A stretch of 64,000 nt of DNA. Source: Marsupella aquatica (Eukaryota > Plantae > Marchantiophyta). The translations under genes and the position numbers were made by a program. The DNA lies in contig OZ316893.1 in the NCBI GenBank assembly GCA_973895155.1, forward strand, positions 5,160,171 through 5,224,170, written 5' to 3'. The notes below the pieces were generated by a model, which had not been told where the DNA came from, searched no databases, and saw nothing but the letters and a program-made list of their open reading frames with translations. Shown here one piece after another: positions 28,701-56,882 of the stretch. Each line of letters begins with the position of its first letter. Positions within the stretch are counted from its first letter, which is position 1.

Positions 28701-31700
28701 TATGATGCTCACTAGAAACTCCCGCAGTCTGCTTCTGAATTGTCACTCAACATGAATTCATTACTTCTAGGCCAACAAACATCACGCACACAATCCCTCA
28801 GTTCGGAAGGTCGTTGCATAACCCAATACAGGAAAGCGCTCATCAAGAAAAGCACAGAACTCACCCCTCCGCGGGATTTTTGAAGGGCACTGGGAAACTC
28901 GACGGAGGAATCTCCAGAGAAAACGTTGACATAGAACACAGACTTTCTGCAGAGTAACCAGAAACTCATCAGGATGAAACAGTCGACCCTGACCGAACAT
29001 ACATCTCTCTCGAATCGACTAAAGGGTGGAGACTTTTCCTTCTAAGCTTGCTCCAATAATACAGGCACAGCAAGGTAGAAAGAGGAACGCACTCGTCACC
29101 AAGGTAGTAGGCCTCCCAACATGGATGAAGGGACTTTGCAGCCTCTTCCAGATCAAGACCAGTTTCCATTTTTGTCATCCAGTATAATGCTTGCTTTTGG
29201 TAAGGACGCAAGTCACATATTATCGTACTCGGTGGATCCATTTCCTGTGCAATAATTGACCAGTCAATTACGATCCGAGGTAATCAGGAGGACAATATGT
29301 AGTCGCAATTAGCATTTAGGACTAAAATTATGGCCAAAAGCCTCACCATCAACTCACTGCCCTCCGATGTCCCGACTATTTTGTTCAGATCCGCCTCTGA
29401 AATTTCTTCGGCTTCATTTTCTTCACCAGGAACTGCAGAAGCACCAGTAGAAAGTTTCTGGCGCTTGTCTGAAGGTAGAATTGGTTCAGACGCTCCATTC
29501 TGAGTAAGGAGCAGCCAGAGAAAATAGTGTTACACCTATATCAGTACACAACACTTGATTCTTCCGGGGAAAAACATCATATGTGGCATGCATCCTCCGC
29601 ACGGTAAATTTTTCGGTCTCCAAATGGTAGTGTCTACGAGGAATGAGTAGCCACTAACAAGAGGTACTCCAAGATTACTATCGGGTAGAGAGTTAAAAGC
29701 CACCTTCTTGGCCATGTCCGAGTCTAGCGACCGCTTCCTATTGTACAGATCTTCTGGGGTGAATTCAGCCTGTCAAGAACAGTAGAAACATACATAGTCA
29801 GATTTGATTGATGCTGTCAACATCAATTAAACTTCCTCATATTTACCAATTAGACTAAACAACTGATCGTCGGCTTGAGAAGAAGACCGAAACATAAGAA
29901 ATCCTCAACACCACTACATAATAATTACCAAAGGCTCTTCCGATCCATTACTGACAAATGTAATTTTGAACTACTCAATGACGTAGAAGACTATCTAACC
30001 GATGCCTAATGAACTTACACAAGGGTATGAAAGTGCATGACACAGAGTTTCACATGAAATATCATCGTCTTGTCGCTACTTGTCCTTGATCTGAAACAAC
30101 ATTCAAGAGAAGAGCTGTTTACCTTCATGAAAGGCTTCTTCCCCAATAGCCGCAGAACTGAAAGAAGAGGATTGTGAGTCGAGATCTCTGCTGACACTGA
30201 GGTAGAACTTGGAGAAGCGCTGTATTTCTTCAAGAGGGATCTACTTACGAATATTCTGAAATGTTCATGTATAGTCCAGAAGGAAATTCAGGAGATACTC
30301 AATCGAGAAGCTGACGAAGAGATTAACATAAACATAGCACTGCAGTAAATGCAGATTTAAGGGGATTACTGAAACCATACCCTATTTGCAAAGTGATACT
30401 GGCTAGGAGGCCCAGGGTAGGAGGGCAGTCTGTGCAAAGCCCTGAAATGGCAACCTTCTTCGACGACACGAGAGGTATTAAATTCCGGGCCCATTCTCCA
30501 GGAAGCCTGCCAATCTGAATTCACACCGTCAACTGTTACTTCCCATTGATAATCACAAGGAGATAGTGCATTCACTTTCATCAAAGTCCAGCAGCAATCC
30601 TCGAAGCATCACAAGGAGACAGTGCCTAGAATAAAGTTCATCCGAGTAAGGCATCACGTGTCTTACCTCTCCGGATTTCTCTGTGGAAAATCTGACAATT
30701 TCAGAAGCCGCAGCAGCTCCCTTACCACGACCCCAACCCCTTCGTGAATCTAAAGTTTCACTTACACTTTTAGGAAAGGAAAACATTAGATGATCTCCAG
30801 GACTCAATCTCTGCCCTTTGCAAGTCGACAGGCATATTACTGAGCTTTGCCCTAGAAGTACCAAATCTTCCTTCCATGAAGCTTGCAACTGAAGAAGAGA
30901 ATTTGTATACAAAGACTGGCTCTCAACTTTGATAGTAAACTCCTCCTGGAGCTGTGAACTACCTAACCCAGCATCAGAATGCCGCTTCTTGAGTATAGTG
31001 ACACTCTCTACATGCTGTGGGTGGTGCTTGTAGACTGTTCGCCCTGGTAACAAAGGCTTAGACGCGTCATCCTGATTGCTTTTGTATGTTGGTTGTGTAA
31101 GATCAATCAAATCAATTGGGGGCTTCGTGTCCACTTGCGATGTATTCAGCTGAGGGTGGTCTTTTGTACCCAGGGTGGAGACTCGAGCCACACTAAGGGT
31201 AGCACCCGCACCTTGCGGTTGGACAATGCTATTTACATTGGGCAAGACCACTGAATCCTTTGATACGCTCGAGTCCAGCATATCCAAGGGCTTCGAATTT
31301 GCCTGAGGCGGAAATTTTGAGAGATCATGAGCTATTGCCTGAAGGGGAGCTTTTACAACCTCTCGGGCTACTGCCTGAGCAGCAGCAGGCGCGGGAACTG
31401 GACTGGAAGTCAGAGAGACCCCAAGTGGAATATTATCTCTACTACCATTTCCATTGCCAGGAGGAGGTTTGGGAAGCTCCTTGACGGTAGGCTTAGTTAT
31501 TTCGGGAGCAGGGGGAGCATTAGTCGAAGGCGCATTTGAGGAAGGGACAGCAGCCCTGCCGCGTTTCACAGTGACTGGCCGATTGAAATTCCAGATGGGA
31601 GGATCAAACAGGATATTGACAGCCGCCGAGACATCATTCTTCGACTGGTAAAGAGCTCGGATGACATCCATCTCACTTGGCCCAGGCCCCATAATTGCTC

Positions 31701-31746
31701 GCACTTCCTTTACTTTGTCATCGGTCACTCCTGCCCTGGTAGCCAT
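22745..31746 (-). CDS. RAD5A: RAD5A-like SWI2/SNF2 helicase with HIRAN and C3HC4 RING domains; 19 exons, about 1213 aa
   Basis: Exons (minus): 31746-30667, 30514-30381, 30255-30123, 29769-29704, 29499-29347, 29244-29093, 28946-28865, 28371-28087, 27877-27734, 27474-27319, 25838-25771, 25449-25327, 25141-25042, 24844-24732, 24599-24336, 24194-23994, 23621-23528, 23393-23223, 22867-22745; intron phases are consistent. Motifs: N-terminal [109 protein letters not shown]. Confidence 0.93.
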
Positions 31747-32760
31747 CTGCCTCCTGCGTACAAGATTCGGTGGACAAGCGGCCACTACACAACCACTTAA
31801 GTCTCTTAGCTCTTCGAAGATATGATGGAAAACAAACATCACACCAATGACGATCCCCTCAACCTCTTCATTCATTAAATCTTTTCATGTCATTCGCTCA
31901 AAGTTTGACAAGAAGTCCCACATTGGCCAGAATTAGTTTGACAGCCAGCCAGCAAATTTAGATCGGCGGAACTCGAGTAACAAAAGACAATCAGTCAAGA
32001 CAAAACACAAGAATCTCGGCATGAACTCTGAGGCAACGAAGTCATGATTTGGAAAGTAAATCCCCAACAGCAGAGGCTTTATAAATCTAAAGCATCGAGG
32101 CCATCAGTTACACTGTCCCCGGGCACTTCAACCGAGAATTGCTACTGTTATTACCAATCGCTGGAGCTAGCAGGAACAGGAATCCTCTGCGACACAATCA
32201 CAGGATTCCTCATCGTACCAAACCTAGGAGAGCGGAATCAGCTAATCATTGATGACCCGAATCTACAATAAGAAGCCGCAGCACCCTTTCTGCCAGAGTG
32301 CCAAACGAGTGCGGAGCTCAGGTAATCGATTGAGAGGGACAACAGCCACTAACCTACTCCGGAGTCAGCGTCGTCGAGAAGCTCCCGGTTAAGCATTATG
32401 GCTACAGTCCCTGTTCGCCAAGCCCACACGACCAAGATGTCCGCCTGAGCAGCATTCGACACCCCGCCGCTGGCTGTCCCGAACCTCTCGAGATACAACG
32501 ACAACTCGCAATAAGATCGCAGAAACTTCGTTCCTCTCGAGAAATTCCAATCAAGCAGAGCAACGTCCACGACGAAGGCTCCTTACTTGACGGAGGGGCG
32601 AGAACTCGAGAACCGCTTCTTCTTCTTCTTCATCAATGGGAGAACAGAAATCCTCTACATGTCGATGAAAAGGACTCTGAGGTGGATCGAATGATGCGCG
32701 ATCGAAGCTGGGCTTGGGCGGGAGACGTGATCGATGGCCTGCTTCAAAACCTCCCAAGCA

Positions 32761-33019: not shown

Positions 33020-36000
33020 TGTTAAACTCTACCTATAACTAGAGTTACTTTCACCATAGTTACATTAACCTCCATGTATATATATATCAATACCATTGAG
33101 TAAACAGAAAACTGAGTCATTATCTTGTATCACGTTATCAGCACGAGCCTTAGACTAGCCGAGCACGAAACGGGAGATGAGAATTTTTTTTTAAGAATCT
33201 GAATTCCAGCTTTCCCCAAAGAGAATGATGCGAATGTGGAGAAATTTCAACCTGGAAAAGAACATATGTTAGAGGGACCACGAAAGAAGGTTGAAGAGGC
33301 CCACAGAATAAACGAGAATCGAAAGCCAGAGGAACTCGTAGGGAGCGCGAAGAATCGATAAGGAAATCAAAGAACTATGCTAGCGACCGACGACCGAAAG
33401 CTCACAAAAATCCTTTGAAAGGAATAAACCATAGATGCTGGCTGCAATCGAAGAAATTCAGTTGACGATCGAAGGCATAAGGAAAGAGAAGAAGGAGACG
33501 AAACGAAAGGACGATCGAAGAGAAAGAAACGCACACTCAAAATAGACATCGAAGGATCCCAGCTTCGTCAATTAAATAAGCACATTCAATTGATGAAAGC
33601 CATAAGGACAGGAGTGCAGGGTGCACAATGAGGACCGATGTCGAGAGCATGTGAAATCAAAAATTCTCAAAAGGAATTGAAAAGAGGGCCAAAAGAGACG
33701 CCGGAACGGAAGCTGGCTGAAATCAATGGAATTCTTACGAAGACCGAAGGCGATCGTAAGTAGACGGAGCAGACATCCAGAAATTTCAGAAATTCGATGA
33801 GAAACTCGTAAGAGAACAACGAAGCGAAAGGGACATTGATAGAAGGAGTGCGCGAGCAAAGGAGAGAGCGATCGAGGAGCCAATGATCGAGAAATTAAAG
33901 AGGTGACTTTACAGGCTTACGGAAATCGAAAGCATAAGGACTGCGAAGAAAGGGAAAAAGAAGCAGCCCGATACATCAAGAACATCGCGACAGTTGTTGT
34001 GAGTGAATGTTGCGAAGGAGAAGAACTACGGAAGATAAGGACATCGAGGAAAAGGAACAACAAGACCGAAGGTTGAAGGTCGAAGCACAACAGACCGAGA
34101 TTTGATGCAACAGACAAAGGTAGCACGAAGGGTCGTGCAAAGGGGGCCACCAAGAGACAAAATGGCGCCCCATTTCATCGATAAAACATCGAGCTCGAGC
34201 CAAAAACCGCTAAGTGCACGCTGCACAACCGCTAAACCTCTTTAATTGCATAATCCTGCAAAGCTTTCAGAATCACCGTGTAATTGTGTGCACTTAACGA
34301 CTTAACTGCAACCCTGCATAATTGCACAAGGAATACAAAGAAAACCTAAAATACAAAGGAAATAATGCACTTATCCAAATACAAAGGAATCTAACCAGAT
34401 AAGTGCAAACCGCAAATTTAAAACCAAAACCTAATAATCATCTCAACACTAGCATAAGACCTAGATAACTTTGCATTCAATCGCTCAACCCTACCCTACG
34501 ATTGTATGCGGCAAAATGTGCATAGTCTTTACAATACCTATACAATATATATAGCGAACTAGAAATCCGAGATGGCGAACTTAGAGAAGTTGCAATTTCC
34601 CGCTTTAGAATTAGAAGGTAGTAACTACCTTGCCTGGTCTTTAGATATAAAGACCCACCTTAAAGCCAAATCCCTATCACGCGCCCTAGAAGCCCACATG
34701 CCAGAAGCTGAAGAGGCCCAGGCACTAGTTTTTATCCGACGTCATTTACACCAATTCCTACAAATGCAATATTTGCATTTGAGTTCACCTCGCGAGCTAT
34801 GGCTGGCTATCCAGACAAGGTACGACCACCAGAAACTGGTGGCGCTACCTCGTGCCAGACAAGATTGGATGAACCTTAGGGTTCAAGACTTCACCTCAGT
34901 CTCCGCCTATGACAACGAGCTATTTAGGATAACCTCTACGCTCACCCTATGCGGCGAGACAACATCCGATAATGACCTACTAGAAAAGACCCTATCCACT
35001 TTTCACTCCACAAACCTAATACTTGCGACTCAGTATCGCAACATGAAGTTTACCCAATACTCAGAACTCCTATCCCACCTTTTGGTTGCTGAACAGCAAC
35101 AACAATTATTGCTTATCAACTCAAAGAAGAGACCAGCTGGAACCTTAGCGCCCACACAGTTAACAGAAGCACATGCCATAGAAAATGGCCAAGCTTCCAC
35201 TTCAAGCCAACAAAACCCTAAAACAACTAAACAAAGTAAAGGGCGAAGACATAACAATAACTCCAACAGGGGGAGTTACTTTAACCATAGAAACCAAAGA
35301 AACTTTAAAAATCGCCCATTCAATGGACGTAAGCAACAGCATTTCCGTGGAGGCGGCTATAATAGAAACCGCAAAGGCGGAAACTATAGGCAAAACAACC
35401 AACCAAGGAGATTCCAACGCTCACCTACGAAACTATGCCACCAATGTGGCATGAACAATCACCTTGCCCGTGACTGCAGAATCCCAAAACACCTTAAGGA
35501 ACTATATCAGCGTTCCTTGAAGGAAAAGAAACAAGAAAGCACACCGCGTGAGACCCATGGAACTTTCATGGAATCTCACGACCCATTTCAGGACTTTGGC
35601 CCAAATCCTGAAACACACCTAGTTGCGTCTACGTCTACACCAATAGACCTAGATAGCCCGAGCACATGCATAATTGATAGCGGTACTACACACTCCATCC
35701 TACGGGATAGAAAGCTATTTCACAGAATCACACCCTCCAATCGCTCAATCATGACAATAAACGGTTCTAACCAGATAGAAGAGGGCTATGGCCCAGCTTC
35801 CTTGAGGTTACCTCAAGGCATAGAAATACATATAGAATCAGCTATATATGCACCTCAAGCAACTAGAAATCTTTTAAGCTTTCGAGACTTAAGAGCGAAT
35901 GGACTCCACGTCCAAACTGGGAACACAAAAACCCAAGAGGTTCTTCACATTGTTGAAGTTACACCTCTAGGAAAAATAATAAGAGAAACTTTATTCTCGT

Positions 36001-39000
36001 ACTCATGTGGGTTCTATCTAACACACATTGAATGCCTACACAATACAATTCAAGCCAACTCCTTGAACAAGCTATGGCATACACGCCTAGGTCACCCTGG
36101 CCAATCAATGTTGAACAAAATAAAGAAGCATGCTCAAGGCATACCAAACAATATCCGCCATATTGTGCTAACTGCACCATGCTCAGCATGCTCACAAGGC
36201 AAATTAATCGCTAAACCCTCATTTTCAAAATTGCCAAACAAAATACCTGAATTCCTAGCATTTTTGCATGTTGACATTTGCGGCCCGATTAACCCACCTA
36301 GCGGACCATTCCGCTACTTTATGGTGATAATAGATGCATCCACTAAATGGTCAAATGTGACCTTACTTTCAACACGCAATTTAGCCATACCCCGCATTCT
36401 CACGCAGATTTTGCGCCTGAAAGCACAATTCATAGATCAACCCATTAAGACATTGCGCGCAGATAATGCGGGGGAGTTCACATCATCCACTTTAGATGAT
36501 TTTTGCACATCACTTGGTATTGATATCCAATACCCAGTACCACATGTCCATTTTCAAAATGGATTGGCTGAAGCAATCATCAAGCGCCTACAGCTAATAG
36601 CACGCCCACTTCTAATGCAGGCAAAACTACCTGTTACTGCATGGGGCCATGCTATCTTACATGCTAACGCACTAATACAATATAGGCCATCTGCATTTAA
36701 CGATTATAGTCCTTACCACCTGAATAATGGTAGAAAACCCGACCTAACCCATCTTCGATCGTTTGGATGTCAAGTTATGGTCCCCATAACTCCACCCAAA
36801 CGAACAAAGATGGGACCCCAACGACAGTTGGGGATTTATGTCGGATATGACTCCCCGTCGATTATCCGATATTTGGAGCCTACCACAGGTGACCTTTTTA
36901 AGGCTAGATTTGCAGATTGCCATTTTGATGAAAACATTTTTCCTAAACTATATAACCCCGACACGAACCCACCACCACTTTTGGAGTGGGAACGCACTTC
37001 CCCATTTTGGGAAGATATTAGAACAAATCAGGGGGAGAAGGAAGTACAACGCATCTTACAACTCCACAAGATAGTGGAGGAGTTACCTGATTCCTTTGTG
37101 GATACCACACAAGTAACTCGGTCACATATTCCTGCGGCAAATGCACCAGCGAGGATCCAAATTCCAATTAATATAGCTGGAACCCAACAACCTCGACAAA
37201 AACGAGGTCGACCCCTTGGTGCAAAAGATAAACAACCACGTAGACGACCTTCGTCTACACCTGGTTCACCAATCATTACTTCGAGCTCTCCTCCAAGTAA
37301 TGACGAAATATCAATCCATTACAACCATTCTGGTGAAATTTGGGACCGACAAGTCACCATCACAAATGAATGTTTCGCATCCATGGTTGCTAAAACCATT
37401 ACGGATGAAACACCATAACCATTAACCATTATAGAATGCCAGAACAGGCCTGACTGGCCTAAATGGCAAGAAGCTATTAATGGAGAACTTGATTCTCTAT
37501 TAAGTCGAAACACATTCGGCTCAGTGGAATTAACACCACCAGATGTCCATTTAATTGGATATAAATGGACCTTTGTTCGTAAACATAATGATAAGGGACA
37601 AGTTGTCCGTTATAAAGCCCGCTTAGTCGGGAAAGGCTTTACTCAACAACCTGGTATTCATTATGATGAGACCTACTCACCAGTAATGGATAACATAACT
37701 TTTAGATACCTTATTAGTTTTGCAATTTTTCATAAACTAAAAATGTGACAAATGGATGTCGCTACTGCATATCTTTATGGGACCTTGGACACGTGTATTT
37801 ATATGCGTGCACCACCAGAATTAGAAGCACGTAAGCGTGCTTTAACTCAAGGAGCTAGATCTCATATTCCATATTTACATAAACTCATTCCAATATCATC
37901 TAATTCTTCTACTAATGTGTCTAACACACATTCTGACACCGCTGTGTCCACCGTACGGCATACCCACCGCGGACTAGCTATCCGCGTGTTGAAGGCCCTA
38001 TATGGCCTTAAACAAAGTGGCAGGGTATGGTATCAACGATTTACCGATGAGATGATATCCATGGGATTTTCCCATGATGCTATTGCACCATGCTTATTTA
38101 TTAAGCATGTTGATGATGAATTTGTCATCATTGCAATCTATGTTGATGATTTAAACATTTTTGGCACTCCAAAAATTACTGAATATACCATCACCACTCT
38201 AAAGTCCACTTTCGAGATGAAAGACCTTGGTCAAACTAGTTTTTGCTTAGGTCTACAACTCGAAATCTTGCCCACTGGCATGTTATTGCACCAGACCACA
38301 TATACTGAAAAAATCCTGAAACAGTTCAACATGCACTTAGCTCACCCACTGACATCACCAATGGTAATTAGATCCTTAGAAAATAGTACTGATGTTTTTC
38401 GCAAACGCGAAGAACATGAACCAACCTTAGGACCTGAAACACCTTACCTTTCAGCTATAGGTGCACTTATGTACTTAGCTAACCAAACTCGACCAGACAT
38501 CTCATTTGCAGTAAACCTTTTAGCAAGACATAGCGCAAATCCCACCCGAGCCATTGGAATGGCGTTAAACACATATTCTGTTACTTACGTGGACACACAG
38601 ACACAGGATTATTTTTCCCGTTTAACTCTATACATGAGATTGTGGGATATGCAGATGTTGGTTATCTTTCAGATACCGACACTGCAAAATCTCAAACAGG
38701 ATACGTCTTCCTTAGTGGAGACACAGCTATTTCTTGGAAGAGTGTTAAACAAACTTTAACAGCTACATCTTCTAACCACTCCGAAATTTTAGCTCTTCAT
38801 GAAGCTAGCCAAGAAGCCGTATGGTTACGATCACTTATAAACCACATACAAGTACAAAGCGGCTTCAACTGCCTAACTCAACCTACTAACATATTTGAAG
38901 ATAATGCAGCTTGTATTCAACAGATCACACGAGGATTTATTAAAGGTGATCGAGTGAAGCATATCGCACCAAAGTTCTTTTACACTCATGAACTACATGG

Positions 39001-39500
39001 AAAAGAAATCAATGTGATGCAGGTAACAAGCGAAGACAACTGTGCTGACTTATTCACCAAATCGTTGACACCAACTATTCATCAACGACACTGTCACAAG
39101 ATTGGTCTTCGGAGCTTACGCAAGATGATGTCAGAGACTTGACTGGAGCTATTACTACTATTGAAATTTTCAAACTATTCATGAGAATCACAAGACTGTA
39201 CTCTTTTTCCTTTAAGAACTATAGATTTTTCTCTACTTACAAACAGAGTTTTTATATTAAGTTGCTAAAGGTTTTAACGAGGCAGTCTTCCTCCATTGTA
39301 TCAATATCATGTAATTTATAAACATGATATATTAAATCTAGTTATAGCGCAGTTGACTACATAGTTACCACTACATAGTCAAGGGGGAGTGTTAAACTCT
39401 ACCTATAACTAGAGTTACTTTCACCATAGTTACATTAACCTCCATGTATATATATCAATACCATTGAGTAAACAGAAAACTGAGTCATTATCTTGTATCA
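33020..39500 (+). mobile_element. Ty1/copia LTR retrotransposon, Bianca-type, full length with TSD GTCGG
   Basis: LTRs 33020-33132 and 39390-39500, identical except one TA unit; TSD GTCGG at 33015-33019 and 39501-39505; PBS CGTTATCAGCACG; PPT AAGGGGGAG; Gag start MANLEKLQFPALELEGSNYLAW is Bianca-like. Confidence 0.95.
34572..39142 (+). pseudogene. gag-pol of the Bianca-type element
   Basis: CHQCGMNNHLARDC; IIDSGTTH; LWHTRLGH; HVDICGP; RADNAGEF; YVDD; RNase H ADLFTK. Stops at 37416 (TAA) and 37746 (TGA) and a 1-nt frameshift near 38550. Confidence 0.92.
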
Positions 39501-40311
39501 GTCGGGCCATTTTTACAGCATTCTTGCATGGGAGGGCCTTCAAATAATACACCCTTTTAAGTGATCAGGTGAAACCTTTGGAATGAGTGAGAGTTTCCTG
39601 CCTCATCCCCTTCCTCATTGCTATATTTGTGGAGTTTCAATGGTAAGGGCCTGCCCCTCCCCCTCCTTGTTGCTATATTTGTGGAGTTTCAATAGGGTGT
39701 CTCAAACATTGCGGAACGCAGAATTTTCCAACGCCCGGGAGTTCGCACCGCGGGTCGCGGGCAGAAAATGTGCTACCGTCCAAGTTGGCTTCCGCACTTT
39801 TGCACCAGGGTTTTTGCGCCAACCTGGGCGTCCGTGGATACGGGTTTAGGCTCGCGTACAACCTGACCATGGTTAACTCTCATCGATGCCTCCACTCGCT
39901 GCGCCGTGCCAGGCCACGTCAGTTTGAAACGTTTAGGAAATCATCGTGAGAACGATGAGCGCAGGACATTTTTGATATCGAGTGTATCGAAATGACGCAT
40001 CTTGCCAACTAGAATCATCGCTTTCCATGATCTTTGTAGTGAGCAGGAAGCCGAGCATCTCGTGCAATAATCGATTTCCCAGAATGAAAAGTGTCAGGTC
40101 GAGGGCGAGTACTCAAGCAGCGAGACATTGTGTGCGAGTGGAGTACCGGCAGGCCGCATGGGAGTTGCTGAGAAGAAGTACTTGCTAGAGGTGAGTCGCT
40201 CATCTCCGTATTGACATTTCCTAATGCAACCCTTTCTGAATATGAGGTTTAGGCAGAGATGTTTCCCATGGATTAGCTGATTTCAGGCGTTGCATTTTTT
40301 TTGCTCAGGCC

Positions 40312-42673
40312 ATGGCTCAGTGGACACCCATTTCTGACGTCGAGAAGGACAGGGTTGCTTGGAAATTTGGAAAATATCCCCCCTCCCTGGTCTAGGCCGC
40401 TAACTATCTACTACTATAATAAAGAATCCCGCCAGTTTTAGTCCTTCGTCCAGTTACAAAAATGAAAAAGGAGGGAACAAAGCTAAGCCATCAGATATTT
40501 TATAGAATTATTTATGGCTCTTGGATTGAGTGAGATGGGAACCTAAAATTGGCTGTAAGTTATAGTACAAGATAGGTATCTAAGTTATAGTACAAGGTAG
40601 ATATAATATGTCATAGAGTACTTGCATGTGTTACTGTAGTTATTTTGTAGCTTAAGTATAATACTTTTTGGCATGGAGCATTATAGTGTAAGTATATTAT
40701 TTTATGGTCTATTAATTTAGAGTACATTTGGCATGGGGCATGAAAGTGAAAAGATTTACTTGAGATAATGGTTTTGGTAGGGAGCGAGCACTAAGGGGAA
40801 GAGAGTAGGTTGACATTTTATTATTTTGGCTTTTGCTCTTAAAAAGGAGATTTAACTCTTTGGAAGTTAGTTAATTTTTAGTTATCTTGCATGGACCCCA
40901 ATTTCTATTTTGCACAATGATATCTTTCACTCGACAAAAAGTTTTTGTATAATAATGTATTTTAACAATTATTATTTTTATTCAACGATTATCTTTTGCA
41001 CCACGTATGATCTATTTCTCAACAACATCTTTAACCAAACAACATCTATTATGCAACGCACGGGGATTGAAAGGATATCGAGAGAATGGTCATCTTTGCT
41101 AAACCCTAAAACACTAAACCTGAAACCGATAATATAACGTTGCTCCAATTTATAGTGGTCGCCATTCAAATGCATGGGCATTTTGGGTAAAAAAACAAAA
41201 CAAAGAAAAAGACTCACTCCTTCTTAGTTTCCTTGATTTTTTATTTCATAACATCTTTCAGAGAACAATAGCTTGGGTGAAACAACACCATTTTTCTTTT
41301 AACATCTTTTACTTCACGATCTCTTTGGCAAAATGACACCTTTTTCTTAATAACATCTTTCACACAATGGCATGTTTGGCAAACCTACTTTTTTTAAGAC
41401 ATTTTTAATTTGTGACATCTTTCACTTAACAACATCTTGGGCAACACGACATCTTATTTCTTAACAACATCTTTTGTGTAACGCACGGGTATTTTCCGTG
41501 AACGATGTCTTGGCTGACACAACATTTTTTTCTCAACAACATCTTTGCCAACATGACAATTTTTTCTCAACGACATCTTGGCCGATACAATGTCTTTTTT
41601 CTCAACGACTTCTTGGCCGACATGACATTTTTTTCTCAACGTCTTCTTGGCCGACACGACATCTTTTTTTCTCAATGACCTCTTGGGCGACAAGACATCC
41701 TTTTTTTCTCAATGACCTCTTGGTTGACACTACATATTTTCTTTCAATGACCTCTTGGCCAATACAACATCTTTTTTTCTCAACGACATCTTGACCAACA
41801 CAACTACTCTTGGGCGACACAACATCTTTACTCTCAACGACCTCTTGGGCGACACGACATCATTTCTCTCAACGACCTCTTGGGCAACACGACATCTTTT
41901 CTCTCCACAACCTCTTGGGCAACACGACATCTTTTCTCTCCACGACCTCCTAGGCAACACTACATCTTTTTTCTCCACGACCTCTTGGTTGACATTACAT
42001 CATTTTTTCTCAATGACATCTTGGCCGACACGACTTCTTTTGTGCAATGCACATCATTTTTTCTCAATGACATCTTGGCCGACATGAATTCTTTTGTGCA
42101 ACGCACAAGTATTGAGCTAGTGTTGCATGAAATCCATATCCCCGGAAATTTACATACTCTGCCTGTCCACATGTATGTGACAATGGACTTCTCTGTGGGA
42201 AATCCCTTGAGTTCGGACCTCGTTGTGGCCATTTATTACCAGGGCAAGCAAAGTTTAGATTCTAGCTAGTTTTATTTGATGCAGCACATGGACCCTGCAA
42301 ACCTGCAAAGGCATTAATTTGGGATACTGCTTGCACTTTGTTGAGCACCTCTGCATATGAGTTCAGTCGATTGGCTAAACTAGACGAGTTACGTTTGGTT
42401 CAGTCAATTGTACAAAAATGTCCCAAGCTTCAGGTATCATTTGAAGTTAGGGGACACGAATTGCACATCTAGCGGCTGGTCATTGTTGATGAGGCTTTGA
42501 CAATTATGACAGGTCCCCAATATGTTGGATCTTCTAGTACCAACAGCCCTGACTTTAGGACACCCAAGAAGGACCCAGAAAACGCTTCCTAGTACTCCTG
42601 TTAAGCGTAGCAGTGCCAAAAAATACTTGCAGACCTCATTGAGCAATTGAAGGGGGCTGATCTTGATGACTAA
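40312..42673 (+). pseudogene. RPA70 C-terminal-like (zinc-ribbon OB-fold) gene inside the transposon, split by a Helitron (40312-40406 + 42121 to about 42673)
   Basis: Joined frame: MAQWTPISD...FTYSACPHVCDNGLLCGKSLEFGPRCGH...AKFRF*LVLFD...KALIWDTACTLLSTSAYEFSRL. The four stops before the frameshifted tail are TAG or TGA. Confidence 0.62.
40407..42120 (+). mobile_element. Non-autonomous Helitron, 1714 bp
   Basis: A|TCTACTACTATAATAAAG 5' end; TGTGCAACGCACA hairpin then AGTATTGAGCTAG|T 3' end; no TSD; internal ACGACATCTT minisatellite. Confidence 0.88.
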
Positions 42674-42914
42674 AATGTACCCTTATTGGAGATTTAGACA
42701 ATTGTGGCTGGTCGTCGTAGGGTTTTGAGGACACCAAATCCACTGTAGTTTTATTTCTGCACTACTGTACTCTATTTTTTGAGAAATAATTTTTTTGACT
42801 CCAGAGTGTTCATTTTTTGGTATTTAAGACTCTTTTTATTCTCCATATCAAATTCCGTGCAATCTTTGCCATATCTTAGCACATGCTTTTGTTCAAACGG
42901 TCTTGCAGGAAACC

Positions 42915-45900
42915 ATGCCAAGAGTTTCAAAGAGGCAATGTCAGTTGAGACTTGTCAAGCAAACGCTTGAAGTCAGTATTGCTTTACACGATTCCACATC
43001 CGAGTTTGATGTGGACTCCATCCAGGGGACTAGTGGTGACCTAGAGAATATCCCATCTAATTGTTTCTCCAGCGATTCAGATGATGCTGAGAGCGGTAAC
43101 TTGGATTCCTCATCTGACTCTGAAAGGGAGGACAATGTTAAGGACTGTGAAGCAAACCCAATAGACCTATTTGAGTTGTACTTTGTTTTGTACAACTCAA
43201 GGTACTTGGTGCCCCGGCATGTAGCACCTAAGGCTAATGAATTTGCAACTCAGTTGCTCCATAATTTACCAGACAAAATATTTAGGCAGCCCACTCGGAT
43301 GACCAAAACTTCATTTTTTACTCTTGTACGTGGACCTTATAACCCCACATCCTGTATTTCAGAATGATTCCTTGTGTGAGCAGGCACCAATTGTTCGCCA
43401 ATTGGCTGTTTGCCTAGATCGCCTAGGCCATGATGGTAATGGGGCATGCTTGAACCACATGATCCCCACATGGGGGGTCAGCAATGGGAGTCTCATCAAC
43501 TTTTCAAACAGGTGTTCAAAGCTCTGGAGAATGTGCTTGACGATTACATTCAGTGGCCTACATCACGAGAGCGAACAGTATTGAGCCAGGAGTTTGCTGC
43601 ACATGGGTTTCCAGGATGTGTTGGCCTTATAGACGGTTCTCTTTTGCCCCTAGCCCAACATCCATTTGCCCATGGGGAATGCTACTATGACCGAAAGAAC
43701 AGGTACTCTGTGAATGTACAGGTGGTGTGTGACCATAAAAGGAGAATTTTGTGTATGTTCTCAGGTACTTCTACCCCTCATAGCGTACTTGCCTTATAGT
43801 AATTCAGGCTGTATATACCCCTTGCTATTCTTATGTGTACTGCTTATGAAATGGAAGTGTTATGCATTTTGTAGGAATGCCTGGGTCATGCTCTGACTTG
43901 ACATGCTTACGAAAATTGCCTCTATGGAGCTTCTGCACAGATGTCAACAGTAACAACTTATTTGGAGAGGGGCAGTACATCTTAGTGGACAATGGGTACC
44001 AAGCATTACCTCATCTTGTGTGTGCCTTCAAGAGGGCTGACATGATTCTTGATAAAGAGGATTTTAACACCTGTGTGGCCAAGTGCCGTGTCACTGTCGG
44101 ATGCCAAATTAGGTAGTAGTTTTAACTAACATTAAAAATGGACTAACTATACTTAGAAGTAACCCCAGTTAGAAGTAGACGTAAGGTTAAAGTAAGTAAA
44201 CTGATGCACAATGGGTCAAGGAGATTAAGTAGGGATAGTTAGGAAGGTCTTAGTTAAAGTCTAGTTGAATTAGGATAGGTTAGGAAATCTCAAGAAGTAA
44301 AAGTAGAAAGTGACAAATGGTCTACTCTGCAGAATTATAGAAAAGTCTCCAAATAGAGTTAGACCTGGAAATCCAGTAAGTAGATAGTCTTAGTTCCAAG
44401 GGACACACTGGCAAATTTCAGACAAAATGGAGGGCAGGGCACAATGCTGGAGATTTATGAAATTGGAGCTTTGTTATAAGTACACTTAAGACGGGATACC
44501 ATAGAAGTAGGGGCGAGTTTTGAGTACAAAGCAAGTAGCGTTACGGGAGTTTGTCTAGGAGTGAGGTGTCATCATGGGAGTCCTTCTCATAAGGATACAA
44601 AATGCAGGGACAATCTACGTAGAAGCCAAGGAAGGAGCAGCAACAATCAGGCAGAAATTCAAGGGTGTAATTAAGGGAAACGAACATCCTTCTATAAGGA
44701 CAATGTGAATTGACTCGGGAGAAGCGGAGGAACCACAGAAATTGCCTGAAGGTAAGGCATGAATTGAATTGAGCTATCGGGAGAAACTCTGTGGTGTTGG
44801 AAGGAACTCTTGGGATAAGAAAATATCATCCCCCGAGCAATCTAGTGGTGGCAAAAGATTCAATTTTGTGCCGCTGCAATTGAAGCTTGGTTGCTAATGG
44901 GGAAATTGTTGGTAATTGCTTGAAGCTTTGTATTGTTGGAGTCCGCTGCTGGAGAACTCGCTACTGAAGAGAGTGGTGTTGTGCTGCCATTAAACTCGTT
45001 ATGGCTGCTGCGCTATTGAGAAGTCCTGGTCCTACTTCACTAAAGCTTGATGCTGCTGAAGAAAATTTGATCCTGCTACTCGCTGCTACTTGAACTTGAA
45101 GCTGTTGTCCTGGACTTGCTGCTGCGGACTGGAAGCAACCTTACTGCTGGCTCGAAGCTATTGGAAGATTGAATGTTGCCCTGATGCTGAGGATAGTTTA
45201 CTTAGTGCTAGTCGAAGCTTGATGTTGGAGCTTCATGCTGCTGATCAGTCGAAGCTCTGATAGGAGAAGCTCTAATCAAGAAATTACTGCTGAGCTCTTT
45301 GCTGCTAAGCTATGGAGAGCCGCTACTGCAGCTAAGATTGGCTGAAAAGCTACACTACGGGATAGAGCTGACTCGTTGCAACTTAGTGCTGCTGAAGGAA
45401 ATCAAATAGAGCTGGCTAAGTAAGGTTGCTGCTGAATAAGAGAAGCTACGTTGCTTCTATGCTGAGAATTGTGGATAGAGCATACTGCTGCGAGCTTCTC
45501 AATAAGCTGCTGGAGCAGCTTCGTGCTACTGAGTAGCTATGGAGAAGTAGAGCTTGGGAGCTAGGCTGATAGAAGTCAATGTTGCGGAGGTGAGCTTGCT
45601 GATTTATGAGCTATGGAGTAGCTGCCAGGGAGAGCATGAAGCAGCAGCACTTCACCGTTGCTCGCGACTTGTGAAGGGAGGAAAAAAAATTGCATTTTGC
45701 GAGTAGTCTTCGCGAAAGGAGGAAAAGGGGGTGGTCTTTGCCAAAACTTACCTGGTAGTTGGCTGTCGGCGGCTGGGCTTGAACTCGTGACCTGTTGTTT
45801 GCTAGGGACTTCATTCGGGTTACCAAGGGAGCGTTCTTAGCTCTTCGTTTAAGGAGTTCGTAGCAACTACTTAAGCTTGCGACAACATCGGTTCTGAGCC

Positions 45901-47760
45901 GTTTGAAGGACTTTGAGGCTGGGTCTAGGCAAGCAGGGAGACCAGGGAGACCAGGGAGACCAGAAGAGGGCCCAGCAGGGGTGCCTCGACTTTATGGAGG
46001 CCCGGGAAACCATCTTTTATCCCAATAGGATATGCTAAAGAGTTTTCATGAAGGCTTGAAAACCACTATTTGTAATAAGTTGTCGGGCTATTATGAAGCC
46101 CAACACTTGAGGGGTGCTGGTATACGATGAGTTGTTGCTAGATAGCTTGGCCTTGCACTCGCACAGTAGCCATAGAATAACTGCTAATGCCAGCATTCTA
46201 GTTGGAATCAACTCAAGCGGTAGTTGTACTATTCGGGTAAGTTTACAACTGTGTAAAAGCTGACCTGTACTTCTGTGGTAACCCGAGTCTCAGCGGCAAA
46301 ACTCGAGACTCAGTGGTAACCCGAAACTCAGTGACGTATTAACCCTCAGTTGTAGGCCAAACTTGGAGTTGTTACCGTGAGAAATATTGTGTTCCAGTTA
46401 GTTTACAACTCGCGCGGTTAGTTGTAAGAGTTACCAAAGGGGGTACCCTGGTTACTCGTCTCGCCGAGAGGTTGCCGCTGTTCAGGTCTTGTGTGGAAAC
46501 CAGAGTACTGGTTGTAGTTAAGTTAACCTGCGGTAAAATAGAGATATAACCCGGGTTAAACTTTAGCAAGAAAGTAGTAAGTTTGCCGTAACTACTAACC
46601 TGAGTTAGCACCTTAGGCTTGGTTTGGTTTGGCGTGGGTTTGGTTTGGAGCCCTGAGGTGTGGAAATAAAGAGGAGAAGCAGGGGGTTGTCTCTTCACTT
46701 GTTCAACTATCCACCTTCTTAGAGGTTGGGAGCTTGGGGGCTGGGCTCTTCCTTGGAGAGCAGCAGCATGAGCTTGAGGCAATAGGAATGGGGGAACAGT
46801 GAACTAGTCCACTAGGTAGGCAGCAAGGAGAAGGTCAAGGGAGGTGTTGTGATCTAAACTTGTTTCTATTCTCTCTAGTAAAGACTTGCGTGTAACCCTC
46901 AGTCTTGAAGCAGCTGTCTAGTGAGATGTCAAGCCAGTGAGCATGTATGTGGACTTAGGTGTGATTTGATACCGGAGAGGTGAAGCTTGAAGCTTGAGGA
47001 TGAGAGCAGGGTCAGCACTTGTCTTGTTGGGATAGCAAGTGGTAATCCTGCAGTCCTTTGTGAAGGAAACAGGGTACTCTCTTGGGTGACGGTTATGTAA
47101 GGAGTCTGCGGGGACAGCTTGTGGGTGTCCACTGACCGTGTTGAGATCAGGAGTGGGGTGTTGGGAGTGTTTTCCAGTGGGAGAGCAGGGGAGTGATAAC
47201 CACCCTTCAAGGTTATCTTTCCAGCGGTGGAAGTAAAATTACCTAGTTGGGTGTGTGAGTGAAGAAGAAGAGAGAGATTAAGGGAAAGTGACCTACTGTC
47301 CTACTATTCGCCCGTCCTAGGAACCCGGACAACGATAAGAAGGGGCAATAGTGGTAGATTTAACTCTAGTGAAGAGTTAAGCCCCATTGCAAGGTGTTGA
47401 CAGTCACCAATGAACAAATGTTGCATAGGAGTGCTGAAGTCAAGGTGGCATTCACTTAAGGAGGTTAGGACTCAATTAAATGGGCCCAAAGATAGTGCCT
47501 GGATGGTTACATGGGTTTCTCTATGTGGGAAGTTACATAATTATGTAATATCCCAGAATGATTTGTGGACTGAGGCAGATGAGGCATTACATGACCCATA
47601 CATCTTGCCCAACAAAGAAGAGGTGGGACGACTTGGTTCTGGCCGAGTGTCAAGGCGTGGAATAGTACAAGCAAGAAATAGTCTACTTGTGAGGGTCATG
47701 GATCATGCCCTCGAGTTCAATTGCAGACCAGGCAGATTCTTGTACTTAGGAGGGGAGTGA
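42915..47760 (+). pseudogene. Harbinger-type (HARBI1-like) DDE transposase; intron 43765-43874; interrupted at 44095-47402
   Basis: QLAVCLDRLGHDGNG; GFPGCVGLIDGS; YYDRKNRYSVNVQVVCD; PGSCSD; YILVDNGY; RVTNE(H)CIGVLKSRW. Frameshifts near 43330, 43505 and 47417. Confidence 0.9.
44095..47402 (+). mobile_element. 3.3-kb solo LTR (probably Ty3/gypsy) inserted in the transposase
   Basis: TGTC...GACA ends; 5-bp TSD GTCAC (44090-44094 and 47403-47407); no coding domain or internal LTR pair seen; TATA-like AAATAAAAGG near 46665; GCT-rich degenerate repeats. Confidence 0.8.
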
Positions 47761-50700
47761 TTGGGTTGTACTTGCAGTCTAGTCAATCACACACTTGTTT
47801 GACTTCAGTTTGACTGCCTCATTTCAGAGTGGACAAGTCAGGTATCTACTTACTTATCTTTGCAACCGGTAGTTGTTCTGGACTGCATTTTCTGGAGTTT
47901 GTTTGTGGATTTTCATGGCACAAAGTTTTTGTGGAGTAGAGTGCTTTGGCTGGCAGAGCATCGTCAAACATTGCCCTAACATGAAGGACTGCCAAGTCAT
48001 GGAGAACCCACGTCCCCCGTTGTGGCTCATTGACACCGAGGACTTTGCCACAGACAAATTTTTCTTGGGCATCTGGAATTTTCCCACCTAGCCAGTTAGA
48101 GTTTGGATCCGCTTTCAGGATTATTTTGGAGACGTTCACAACTTCCAAAACACATGGTGTTCTGTGTAGGTGCTTTGCATAGAATAGGATAAGTTCTTTG
48201 AGTTTGCACATGAAGTGTTGGAAGATGACAACAGTGATGACGATTGCAGCTTTACCTCCACGATGACTGAGCTAGTGAGCTCCATTTCGGATGATTGTGA
48301 TGCCGGTGCAGCTTGTGCAGACTCGGGCGTGGACAGGTCAAAGGCAGCACGAGGGGTTGAAGGCCCTTTTGTCCGTGCTAATGGGCAGGGCGGAAGTCCA
48401 TGACCGGGACTTTTGTGAAGGCCATTCACATTCGGGCCATTGACATGAGTTCCATCTCCCTTAGTAAAGTCGGCTGTTTTTCAGGTATGTAGGATACAAG
48501 GTCCCTAATTTTGGGGCTGTTAATTAGAGGTCCATCCACCTTAGTAACATCGACTTTTCTCAGCTAGGCAGGATTTAGCTTTCCAGGCATTTACAGTTCC
48601 ATCGACCTTAGTAACATCGGCCGTTTTTCAGCCAGGCAGGCCCTAAGTTCAGTCATTTAAGAAGTTGTAGCGCAGGACAGGTGTTCATGTGGACAGTACA
48701 GTCCTTCACAATGTATTATGCCTTACATTTTTGTAATGAAGTATGCGTTTCAGTATTCCCTTTGCACTTGACTGTTAAGCCCTACTCGGATTTCGAAGAA
48801 AGGCTGTGAAGATCGACTATAAATGAATTTGGGCACTTCTATGTTTCATAAGGCCTATGTTGTGCCCAATCGTTGTACGTATGTGGGAAGTGATTGAATG
48901 TAATTTTGGTCAAACTAGCTTCATGCATTCATAACAGTGGCGCAATCAGCCGGCAATCAGTGTACCGCACATTCACATTCCAGACCTTTGGACTTGAGAA
49001 GATGTCATGAGGTAGAGGCAAATTTTGCATTTATACAAAGGGTGAACAATCCGGCAACGTGACTCATTCAATTTGTGTGTGCACACACAATGGGGCACTT
49101 ATATAAGTAATCAAAACTAAACAAGACAAGTCTAACAAAACCGCACAGTGCTCTGTCAAAATTTGTGACAGGGCCCCAAACCCGGTAGTAACTTAGTGAT
49201 GACTTATAATTGCGTATATGAGTAGAAAGACAACTAGGTGTAGCAAAAGTGTTTGGTTTTCAAAATTTTTAATTTTTGTTAGTTCTAAAACATTGATGCG
49301 ACAACTGGAGGCCGGAGTAGAGAGGGGTGTCGGGCGGTGATGGATGACAAGGGAACCATTGAGGGGGTAAAAGGAGGCCACAAGGCATCCCAAGGACTTG
49401 GAGCCAACATATGGGCATCTTGGAGGGGTGGGGGCTGGTCGGAGGCTCCATGTAAGGCGCAAAACGGGAAGAATGGCCAAAATATAGAAAATGTTGAAAC
49501 TTAAAACAGACGTTGCTGCGCTAGTACTATTCTAAACATGGTCATGTTTGGATTCATTTTGAAGCCCCTCAATAAGCCCCATGCGAAACTGAGGTTATCT
49601 AGTTGAGTTTAGGTCTATATCAAACAGTGACATCTTGAGAGACCTCAACGCTCATAAAACAACAAACTAGACAATCTTGGAGTAGTGATGGTGGGAGGGC
49701 CCTTAGAAGGAAGGGGTTCCCACACTTGTGTTCCCCTTCACCCTTTGTGTGGTCCTCACATGTTTTTTTTAGCTCTCCTTCCCTTCCCCACCATAGAAGG
49801 GGCCCTCACACTTTCTTCTTTCCTTTTTTCTCTATTCTCACTTGTGGGGTTTCCATCCATACCTAAACCCTAAACCCTTTCCCTCTTGTGCTTGCTTTCA
49901 ACGTGTGTACGGACCCTGGTTATACGAACATCAGATTTTTGACCATCTTAAAATCAGGAGTCTATGGACTTGTTGGAAAGAGCTTGCCGAGCTGAATCCA
50001 ACGATGTGTCACACGGCCAAAACGGAGCTAAGACGGGGGAGATACAATAGATCGCATTTTTTTGAGAATACGAGAGTTTTGAGGCCGTACGGATATCCGT
50101 ACGGCAGGAGGTCCCAGCTTTGCAAGAGAAGGAGGAGGTAGCAGCACATAAGGAGAAACCGTGATCCGTGTTTTGCAAAGCCGGGCCCCCTGGTGTTGTA
50201 CGGACGAAACGGAAGGAGACGGTGCACCATGAAAACTTAAACGACCATATCTTGGCCGTTTGACCTCCGTTTTGTGCACCGTTTACGGAGCCGTGATCAG
50301 GAAGAGGAGGGCTCATCAGATATGTTTTCAGAAGTGAATTCTGAGAAAATTTTAGTTTCAACAATTATAGGGGCCCCCTCCTTTTACAACGAATCGGTGG
50401 TGGCGATTAGGAGGATTGAGGTTGGTAGGCAGGGTAGATAGATAGGATATGAGGTGGTGGACTCAAGTGAGTCCTTGTTTAGCGGAGTGGTATCCACTCC
50501 AATGGAGAGCGATGAGGAGACCAACTCACAAGGCTCAAGCCAAGGCACCGTGAGTGAGGAGGAGGAGGACTGATGAGGAGACCAACTCATAGGGCTCAAG
50601 CCAAGGCATCGTGAGTGAGGAGGAGGAGGACTGATGAGGAGACCAACTCACGGGGCTCAAGCCAGGGCACCGTGAGTGAGAAGGAGAAGGAGAAGAGTAA

Positions 50701-50867
50701 GATGTTGGAGAAACAGTTGCGGGAGACCCGTAAGTTATCACGGGAAACCCAAGCTGGTCACGGTGCCACCGTATCTACTAGTCATGGTGCCACCGTATCC
50801 GCTGGTCACGGTGCCACCGTATCAGCTAGTCATGGTACCAACATTTCATCACCCTCATCATTACCAG

Positions 50868-53800
50868 TGTAGAGGTTAACTCAGTCTTGGGTTGAACTAT
50901 GGTTAGTATGTTAACTAGGGTTAGAGTAAACCCTAGTTGAAGAGATTGGTCCTTATCTCTTCAACTTCTATGTGGTGTGAGAACACACAAGAGAGTTCTC
51001 AAGAGAGAACACAGTGATATAGCAAGAGATGAGAGCTTGAAGAGATGAGAGCTATGGTGATGCTTGAGTAGACACATAACCGTTAATAAAGCTTGGTCTT
51101 CCCGTGGACGTAGCCAACCTTGAGGCGAACCATGTAACTATTGAGCACGTTTATGTTTGGAGTATTTTTCCTGATCGGATTTCTCCCCACAATTGGTATT
51201 AGAGCTCAGATTTTTTCAGTTGATTAGGAACTCCATAGAACTTGCTTCAAGCGAAGCGAACAGCGGATGATTTCCTCTTCGAAGCGGAGCTATTGGAAGA
51301 AGATCGGACTCAATCTTCTCACAAGTGTGGAGCACACAACCAGGGGCTCATTTAAGTGAAGCAATGCAGGCCTGAGGTCAAAAACGGAAACAATTGTAAG
51401 TGACGGTTTCAATTTATGTTATCGGGCAAGAGATAAGGTCAATTTCTCAGATCATTCTTTTTGATTATTCTATCGGGACTTGAAACTGAGATACGCTTGA
51501 GCGCCTTGTCTTTCTAGACATTTTGATATCAACATCATTGAATTCCGTCAAACGGTTGAGAAACAATCTTAATTTCAATTCTCGTTTTTTGAGCTCAAAA
51601 TTTTGGCTATGGCGGATAACTTAATATCAGTCACTTTCACCAAATTGTTTCTCCCTCATTACTCCGTTTTGCGAGTCCTTTATATTGATCTTGATGCCCT
51701 CAAAGTCTAGTTTCTGGATCTGAAATCAGAATTGGATTTTGTCAAAAACTAATACGGGAATTTGAGTGAATCCACCGAGGTGTATTTTTTGCTGCGAGTA
51801 GTCGCGACTTGCGCGGGCGCACGAGGAGGTCGAAAAGTTTGAGGAGGCCTTTCTAGGGCTCGGGCAGGGGAAAGTGCCCCCTGTGAAGTCCCCCACAGGG
51901 GCTGTACAAGGGCGGACGGAATTTCCCAAAAAGATTCTTTTCCAGAGGCTTAAATTTTTACCGAAGGTCAAAGATTCCGAGTGGCAAACAAAATCGGATC
52001 AACTTCAACTTTTGGAGATGAGTACTTGGGGAAGCTAGGCAAGTATTGGTGCGTTTGATTTTGAAAAATTATACTAGTGGAATCTTTGGCATAATAGATT
52101 CCCTCGAAGGGTAATTATTTAATCGTTTACCCCCCTCCGGTTGGAGTAAAATTCTCGACACTCGAGAGTCCATTTGACAAATCATTTTCAGAATTTGGAG
52201 CGTTACCTTGTGGGCTACACACAAGAGTGATCAGTTTCAAAATTCACCAACTTTCATTTTTGGCTTTATTTTCACACCCCGCATCTGAGCATTCGACATT
52301 TATTTCTTGTCGGAAGGTGACTCCACACTACATTCGGCATTCCAACGATGGTGACTACTAGGATTGGAGGTCAAAGGTTTGAGGTGGAAAAATTTGATGG
52401 TCGGATGGACTATACAATGTGGGAACGTAACGTGAGGGATGCACTTAGGGCAATGGGCCTAGGCAAGGTACTAAGATCTCAACCCAAGGAGATGGAAGAT
52501 GATGATTGGCATGATCTCCAGGATCAAGCGGTAAGCATTGTTGGGATGTACCTAAAAAACAATGTGAAGAAGCAGTTCAAGGAAAAATCAACACAAACGG
52601 TGACGGACTTGTTTCAAGCATTACGCAACAAGTACTACAAGAAGGAGATGTTCAAACTGAATGTATGCAAGCCTAAAGCTCATGCAATTCAAAATGGCTG
52701 ATGGAGTCAAGATTCAAGATCATATCGATCAGTCAATGATCTTATGGTTGACCTAGAGAATTTGGGGGAGTATTTGAGTGAAGAAAAGAAAGCCTTACAA
52801 CTCTTGAGCTTACTACCACCTTCGTACCAATCTTTGTCTCGAGTTCTTCTATTCCGTGATAAGACAACTATATCCTACAATGATGTGGTGAGTGCCCTGT
52901 TGACCGATGACATGCAGTCTAAGCTGGTTTCTTCAGCTCATCCTACCTCAACCTCATCATCAACAACACTGTTGGTAGAAAGAGGCAAAATAAGGGAGCC
53001 ATCTCATGAAAATAAAAGGTTTAACCCACTTCCCATGGAGCAAGGAAGGTTCCACAACCGATCCTTTGGTAGGAGGTTTAGATCCAGATCTAGATCTCGA
53101 TCCAAATCACCATCCAGGTCTACTCGTGAGATAAAGTGTTAGAAGTGTGACAAAGTGGGCCACATGAAGAAGGATTGTCGCGTCAAAGACACATTCAAGG
53201 AAGTTGCCGGTTCTTCAGCCCAAGTAGTTGTTCGAGAAGAGGATAGTGAAGGATTTGCATTGTGTACCACTTCCCAAGTTGAGGATTGTCAATGGATCTT
53301 GGATTTCGCTTGCTCGTATCACATGTGTTATATGCGTGAACTTTTATCATCTTACACTCCTATCAATGGATCTGTTTTGATGGGAAATAATCATTCTTAC
53401 AAAGTTTTAGGGATTGGATCCGTAAAGATTCAACTACCCGATGGCAAGTACTGTACTCTATCAAATGTCAGACACATTCCAAAAATGTGTAAGAATTTGA
53501 TTTCTCTTGGCTACTTGGATGCGAAGGGTTATCAATGGAGTGCAACTGATGGGGTGTTAACAGTCACGCACGGATCAAATGAAGTTCTTATTGGCAAGAG
53601 GAAAAGAAACATCTATGTCTTGGAAGGCACCACCCTTCTTGCCGAAGTCAATTTGGTCACATCTCAGGAGGAGAAAATCAATTTATGGCATGCTCGGCTT
53701 GGTCACATGAGTGAAAAAAGTTTGGAAATCATATACAAGCGACATCTCCTACCAGGATTGCAAGCATGCAAGTTGAGTTTTTGTGATCATTGCATGGTCG

Positions 53801-56800: not shown

Positions 56801-56882
56801 GTAGCCAACCTTGAGGCGAACCACGTAACTATTGAGCACGTGTATGTTTGGAGTGTTTTTCCTGATCTGATTTCTCCCCACA
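50868..56882 (+). mobile_element. Ty1/copia LTR retrotransposon (Tork/Tnt1-like), full length, degenerate, TSD ACCAG
   Basis: LTRs 50868-51191 and 56571-56882 (about 6 substitutions plus 16-bp and 4-bp indels); TSD ACCAG at 50863-50867 and 56883-56887; PBS TGGTATTAGAGC; PPT AAGGGGGAG. Confidence 0.95.
52348..56372 (+). pseudogene. gag-pol of copia element 3
   Basis: KFDGRMDYTMW; WILDFACSYH; LWHARLGH; HSDVWGP; RSDNGGEY; YVDD; NPADAFTK; several stops and frameshifts. Confidence 0.92.

Follow-up and report, generated by a model that had tools for sequence, protein, structure and literature searches.

A 64,000-nucleotide stretch of the genome of the liverwort Marsupella aquatica (contig OZ316893.1, positions 5,160,171 to 5,224,170; referred to as the window, with all coordinates counted from its first base) contains a Pangu-type DNA transposon with a hitherto undescribed third gene, whose relatives are predicted to adopt the fold of RPA70 DBD-C. 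With a probability of roughly 45%, we propose that the encoded single DBD-C-like domain would serve as a single-stranded DNA (ssDNA)-binding helper at the excision break or on transposition intermediates, docking via its C-terminal helix and biasing repair.

The host element spans 39694-59604, and its size of 19.9 kb is inflated by nested insertions. Its left terminal inverted repeat (TIR; 39694-39712) is preceded by a target duplication, AAT (39691-39693), and its right TIR (59586-59604) is followed by a second AAT (59605-59607; both ends given for the forward strand). The two TIRs match at 17 of 19 positions; the right one was found when the rest of the window was scanned for the reverse complement of the left start. 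Moreover, both flanks of the element matched, across one AAT, an uninterrupted copy of the target at 39618-39651 (+), which represents a paralogous empty site within a local tandem unit. Public sister contigs placed the left boundary at the same site: three of them, from three runs, begin to align at 39689-39693 and carry unlike DNA before this point, and one contig of the left flank stops at 39693. Another candidate TIR, the 9-bp inverted repeat GGGCCTGCC (39647/48644; TAA on its flanks), was rejected in view of this start of the sister contigs, the 19-bp TIR, and the empty-site match. The 19-bp TIRs and the AAT duplication flank both the RPA-like gene and the transposase, in line with an earlier note on this DNA, which had placed the gene inside the TIRs and in tandem with the transposase.

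Pangu elements (Harbinger2 in Repbase [PMC12730594]), a group of the PHIS superfamily, are recognized by an ANT target duplication, a short TIR whose first bases are AG, a DDE transposase that has no further domains, and a second open reading frame (ORF) free of known motifs (PMC4482050). The element described here carries AAT on both sides; its TIR of 19 bp starts with AG, within the range of 11 to 40 bp and the AG or GG start of Pangu; intact relatives of its transposase contain DDE families only; and its second ORF has no known motif. By duplication, TIR, DDE transposase, and second ORF, it is of the Pangu (Harbinger2) type, as these features are described in PMC4482050 and PMC12730594. Its AAT differs from the TWA target duplication of PIF/Harbinger in the narrow sense, a group whose second ORF has a Myb/SANT domain. 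A second Pangu-like right end was observed at 62318-62339, where 11 of 12 TIR positions match and AGT, of the ANT type, follows; no partner end for it was found within the window.

The transposase is a Harbinger-type DDE pseudogene (42915-47760, +) with an intron at 43765-43874 and several frameshifts, and is split by a nested LTR-type element recognized in the sequence (44095-47402, no strand assigned, GTCAC duplication). Joints skipping this LTR-type element were present in three of four runs. A transposase fragment matched PF13359 with an E value of 3.7e-5, just under the curated cut-off, which was passed by intact relatives that align along 42915-47760. The nearest named transposase, from Calypogeia fissa, was 58% identical over an 85-aa query. 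Tail-to-tail with the transposase lies the second ORF (57798-59294, -), an arrangement also described for ANT-targeting Harbingers of Ectocarpus in the accessible part of PMC12477816. This ORF comprises a helical N-terminal part and a charged C-terminal part and showed no significant Pfam match. Its single-sequence model was helical, with a pLDDT of 48.6 too poor for a fold search, and its Atlas look-alikes were unnamed basidiomycete and plant clusters (0.91 and 0.90), with weak Myb/SANT leads (0.8). Since this second ORF is present as well, the RPA70 DBD-C-like ORF is an additional, third gene and does not stand in for the usual partner. That a cut-and-paste element carries an accessory gene, as the earlier note had it, was thus borne out by its location inside a Pangu-type element, with the amendment that the usual second ORF, which the note did not mention, accompanies it.

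Downstream of the transposase stop and ahead of the nested repeats, long near-open frames with sister-contig coverage (47854-48480, -) may, judging by their sequence, represent a decayed fourth gene; no Pfam match was found for this segment, and no homologue for one overlapping frame. A Copia-type LTR retrotransposon with an ACCAG duplication (50868-56883, +) is also nested inside the Pangu element. Further repeated or low-complexity DNA with heavy contig coverage occupies approximately 49190-50400 and 56884-57600 inside the TIRs, and there are probably further nested insertions beyond the Helitron-type, LTR, and Copia inserts. Outside the Pangu element, 110-bp LTRs and a GTCGG duplication mark a Copia element (33020-39499), which ends ∼190 bp left of the Pangu element and lies just upstream of a RAD5A-like gene (UBA_RAD5A match, 30556-31884, -). 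The segment 63000-63620 (-) is coding-like and resembles what we take to be an S-adenosylmethionine synthetase exon.

The third gene is divided into a 5′ part (40312-40406, +) and a 3′ part (42121-42673, +) by a nonautonomous Helitron-type insert (40407-42120, +). The insert comprises 1714 bases, starts with TC and ends with CTAG between A and T, and contains 35-bp tandem repeats. Its relatives at 15777-16260 and 18146-18570 (-) share these 35-bp repeats and resemble it at the 3′ end. Removal of the insert restored the frame exactly as the earlier note had written it, including the stops at 40393 (TAG), 42128 (TGA), 42263 (TAG), and 42470 (TAG). Public sister contigs skipping exactly the 1714 insert bases were found in three of four runs (1, 3, and 3 contigs). 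Because contigs without exactly those bases exist, the insert is later than the gene, and the order of events proposed before, in which the gene predates the Helitron, holds. A joint from 42687 to 42874, considered as a bridge between the gene and the transposase, occurred in one run with 29 letters on its short side and was not counted.

A search with the 3′ piece, with X at the stops, yielded two intact relatives (203 and 200 aa), with 55% and 45% identity to it. Both matched the window by tblastn on each side of the insert junction, and their start methionine corresponds to the ATG at 40312. The 3′ part, which covers the CCCH zinc site, the OB barrel, a linker, and the C-terminal helix, contains three premature stops and two compensating frameshifts. 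These frameshifts return translation to the first frame, which ends with ILADLIEQLKGADLDD and a stop at 42673, as in the relatives; the STPVKR tail previously taken as the C terminus is therefore not the natural end of the protein. In sister contigs of three runs, an additional A follows 42617, and the C terminus at 42673 is a predicted helix. The stops had previously been attributed to single C>T changes in CAG or CGA codons. At 42128, one sister contig does have CGA. At 40393, in contrast, 9 of 16 close relatives carry Trp in the aligned column and none carries Gln. Since Trp is aligned there and the sister contigs also have T at 40393, this stop came from TGG by a G>A change (deamination on the other strand) and not from CAG. 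Upstream of the ATG, a putative intron (40191-40308, +) has the GT and AG ends noted before and terminates 3 nt before the start codon, as far as can be read from the sequence only. If it is spliced, a putative upstream exon (39713-40190, +) would be in frame with the ATG. This exon is probably untranslated, because it contains three stops, has no matches from relatives, and carries frame-breaking indels in sister contigs; it had no Pfam match either.

A family profile built from the two intact relatives retrieved 103 clusters (50% identity) at E ≤ 0.001 among 1.84 billion representatives. All but one of these clusters (102/103) were shorter than 400 aa, and the remaining one, of 675 aa, was without RPA domains. 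For alignment, the 55%-identical relative (P0003) was combined with 62 profile matches picked as more complete, and the resulting 63 members had a median length of 226 aa. Among 27 members looked up, five bore an organism name, three being from Calypogeia fissa and two from Riccia sorocarpa, which represent the two main liverwort classes; the family is apparently liverwort centred. No family locus was detected in two metagenome scans, and a prokaryote scan returned a single 20-residue match, which was taken as chance.

Conservation within the 63 aligned members was pronounced at the putative metal ligands (C47 in 61, C57 in 60, C67 in 61, and H69 in 54 members) and at Y44 (58), F79 (62), D85 (61), Q121 (58), and position 99, where 61 members have Trp or Phe and which aligns to the Phe of LTLFD in yeast RPA1. 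The metal site has the form Cys-x9-Cys-x9-Cys-x-His, with the complete C, C, C, H set in 49 of the 63. It thus differs from the C4 site of RPA70 that had been expected, C-x2-C-x13-C-x2-C (PMC4731521), and C3H zinc variants are known in archaeal and some algal RPA1 proteins, as described in the available portions of PMC8329085 and PMC4731521. In P0075, P0103, P0020, and P0073, the first zinc pair is C-x2-C as in canonical RPA70 instead of having the x9 spacing, which may reflect the ancestral state or a secondary deletion. The divergent members P0059, P0067, P0080, P0091, and P0101, two of them from Riccia sorocarpa, are fused to a common C-terminal domain, which had no Pfam match in the two members scanned and is partly repeated in P0101.

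The breadth of the family bears on the possibility that the gene does nothing for the element and is either a captured piece evolving neutrally or what is left of a nested Helitron of earlier date. The window copy by itself would fit this, being a pseudogene with four stops and two frameshifts in an element full of nested insertions. However, dozens of intact, highly diverged members keep near-invariant metal ligands, and sisters carry the same Pangu left end together with the DNA leading into the gene. With respect to an older Helitron, no convincing Helitron 3′ end was found between the ORF and the transposase, where the weak test available gave one CTRR-T site with a fold of -1.3 kcal. Since near-invariant metal ligands across ∼25 to 50% identity mean long selection, a neutral passenger is very improbable. 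With its 103 clusters, the gene belongs to a conserved family, as the earlier note had anticipated, and is not a one-off captured fragment.

The RPA signal appeared with the family profile and the structural model only and not in direct sequence searches. Neither the window piece nor its two nearest relatives had a meaningful Pfam or PDB sequence match, and phmmer recovered no RPA chain from the PDB with P0103 as the query. Accordingly, the match to Rep_fac-A_C (PF08646) sought for the repaired protein was absent from the window piece and the two nearest relatives but was found in 6 of the 63 family members, with a best E value of 3.8e-7. The family profile matched DBD-C of yeast RPA1 (6i52_C) with an E value of 7e-5. 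The fold was modelled for the relative P0003 and not for the window copy: AlphaFold2 with the alignment gave a pLDDT of 90.5 and predicted a beta barrel (residues 1 to 157), a loose linker, and a helix (residues 185 to 198). The predicted barrel is an OB fold with a zinc module after the first strand, which is the trait of RPA70 DBD-C. In Foldseek, all 10 matches of this model at E ≤ 0.001 were RPA or Teb1 chains, with RPA trimerization cores at the top (E of 2e-5). An exhaustive fold search (VIA) was headed by Teb1 OB-C (Z of 13.8), Ustilago RPA (13.7), and human RPA70C (13.1), with root mean square deviations of 2.7 to 3.0 over 136 to 140 superposed residues. The Atlas pointed to Rep_fac-A_C clusters (0.89 to 0.90), though with a recognition value below its reliable range, and a viral fold library yielded no match at E ≤ 0.001. 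Profile match, structure prediction for P0003, and fold searches agree on an RPA70 DBD-C-like zinc/OB fold, as the earlier note had proposed, and for the modelled relative we consider the assignment solid.

As in RPA70 DBD-C and Teb1 OB-C, the zinc module of the model interrupts the OB barrel and a C-terminal helix follows (Z of 13 to 14). Unlike RPA70, the family is stand-alone and without domains F, A, and B, has less than 20% identity to it, and carries the helix behind a long linker. Host RPA1 combines the four OB domains F, A, B, and C in one chain, for which family members are too short.

We next consider how general the link to Pangu is. Two family members, P0007 and P0107, are located on contigs of 5965 and 2983 bases, and two transposases, P0119 and P0114, on contigs of the same sizes. 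Simulations covered 22 family and 6 transposase Logan contigs, with JGI, ENA, and NCBI rows left out, and two or more such size matches arose in 0.035% of them. P0007 and P0107 are 36% identical to the gene of the window, and P0119 and P0114 are 38% identical to its transposase. Because simulated matches were this rare and both genes show this level of identity, a second, distant lineage probably pairs the same two genes, the basis being the two exact contig-size matches. Counted against generality were four of the six Logan transposase contigs, which had no size match among the family contigs. In Calypogeia, the transposase CAM6082673.1 and the family member CAM6082296.1 are on an equal-length scaffold but are not adjacent, as they lie 377 accessions apart. 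The earlier claim that a cut-and-paste family carries the gene is hence secured for this element and extends to a second lineage by inference only.

It is also conceivable that the gene is a mobile cargo shared by several kinds of liverwort transposons, possibly derived from Helitrons and carried by Pangu in some lineages, with a job, such as anti-silencing or RNA binding, unconnected with cut-and-paste chemistry. Out of 103 clusters, the surroundings of the gene have been established for a single element and inferred for one other; Riccia and some other members are fused to a different common domain; and stand-alone Rep_fac-A_C clusters of ∼190 to 200 aa exist in arthropods and plants. The accessible parts of the literature name Helitrons as the known carriers of RPA genes (PMC11417382, PMC6431247) and describe passive movement of TET genes among fungal transposon lineages, Harbinger types included (PMC12730594). 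Nonetheless, two linked pairs that are 36 to 38% identical in both genes fit long co-inheritance. Moreover, the Calypogeia member P0010 groups with P0007 in a quick version of the family tree (support of 94), and P0114 is the nearest match of the Calypogeia transposase (66%). We regard a shared cargo of this kind as unlikely.

If the protein is a ssDNA-binding helper, as we prefer, the element would have acquired its gene at an early date from host RPA1 or a Helitron RPA gene, with reduction to domain C, and selection acting on the element would have maintained it. Its product would bind ssDNA exposed at transposition or donor-site repair and would occupy resected or flapped DNA ends where excision has broken the DNA, with its C-terminal helix docking on a partner, either host RPA32/14 or an element protein. 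As a result, templated gap repair would be favoured, so that the element would be restored and its copy number increased. DBD-C is one of the ssDNA-binding domains of RPA, and its zinc finger contacts the backbone, as stated in the available part of PMC8329085. Several observations were counted against this reading. The net charge of the core is near zero (+3 to -1 in five members), and a two-residue turn joins the last two strands in the P0003 model; at this place, RPA70C has a longer loop that contacts DNA. RPA itself uses domain C together with domains A, B, and D, all absent here. Furthermore, an RPA-like gene is not generally needed, since canonical Pangu/PIF elements are described with two ORFs in the accessible part of PMC4482050.

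With little DNA binding of its own, the protein might instead be a decoy RPA70 subunit that captures host RPA32/RPA14 via its helix and dampens or redirects the damage response at transposon breaks. Domain C is the only part retained, and the C-terminal helix of this domain in RPA joins RPA32 and RPA14 in the three-helix bundle that trimer formation requires (PMC8329085 and PMC10122647, as far as available). The core is not basic, the terminal helix (185 to 198) of the P0003 model is confident, and similar tails occur in most full-length members. However, this helix lies ∼30 disordered residues behind the barrel and is poorly conserved in sequence, whereas aromatic and basic residues in the barrel and around the zinc site show strong conservation, which would be expected where a ligand is bound. 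In addition, the host would pay for the sequestering of an essential complex, and such a decoy appears rather unlikely. The tail was also counted against the helper reading, because only 11 of 52 members had an amphipathy above that of shuffled sequences (P < 0.05); a loose helix pattern was seen in 47 of the 52, but without a control, and the shuffled test was preferred.

Pangu elements have been described with two ORFs, whereas here a third, conserved RPA70 DBD-C-like gene lies upstream of the transposase. Like the RPA genes of Helitrons and Helentrons, it is a transposon-borne RPA homologue (PMC11417382, PMC6431247, and PMC9033089, in the portions available to us). However, Helitron RPA genes lie within Helitron termini and accompany RepHel in a rolling-circle element, whose mechanism inherently exposes ssDNA. 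The carrier here is bounded by TIRs and a target duplication and encodes a DDE transposase; the gene, inside those TIRs, is split by a later Helitron-type insert. HarbingerS (SET methyltransferase) and PHISTA (TET/JBP) are PHIS elements that also contain an accessory gene, according to the available part of PMC12730594; their cargos are chromatin or DNA modifiers, whereas the gene described here resembles a replication/repair factor. We found no RPA-like gene in a TIR element in the main text of the openly available articles searched, nor in passages of PMC5751038, PMC12477816, PMC3627910, PMC12210899, PMC4731521, and bioRxiv 10.64898/2026.05.26.728016.

RPA-like genes have been treated as a hallmark of rolling-circle Helitrons, in which ssDNA is part of the mechanism. 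For annotation, the present case means that an RPA-like match in a liverwort repeat need not indicate a Helitron. The small stand-alone DBD-C-like protein with its CCCH zinc site also offers a chance to study this domain alone. A large, old, and conserved family of single-domain RPA70C-like proteins in an element with TIRs and a DDE transposase suggests that some cut-and-paste elements manage host repair at their own breaks, which bears on how such elements gain copies; the weight of this suggestion depends on a family-wide link to Pangu and on a measured activity. In its most far-reaching form, which is quite unlikely, liverwort Pangu elements would have possessed a mini-RPA70 from a time before the divergence of the two main liverwort classes; together with host RPA32/14, it would form an alternative RPA and direct the repair of excision breaks towards re-copying of the element. 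If true, this would be a case of a cut-and-paste transposon rewiring the core ssDNA-binding complex of its host.
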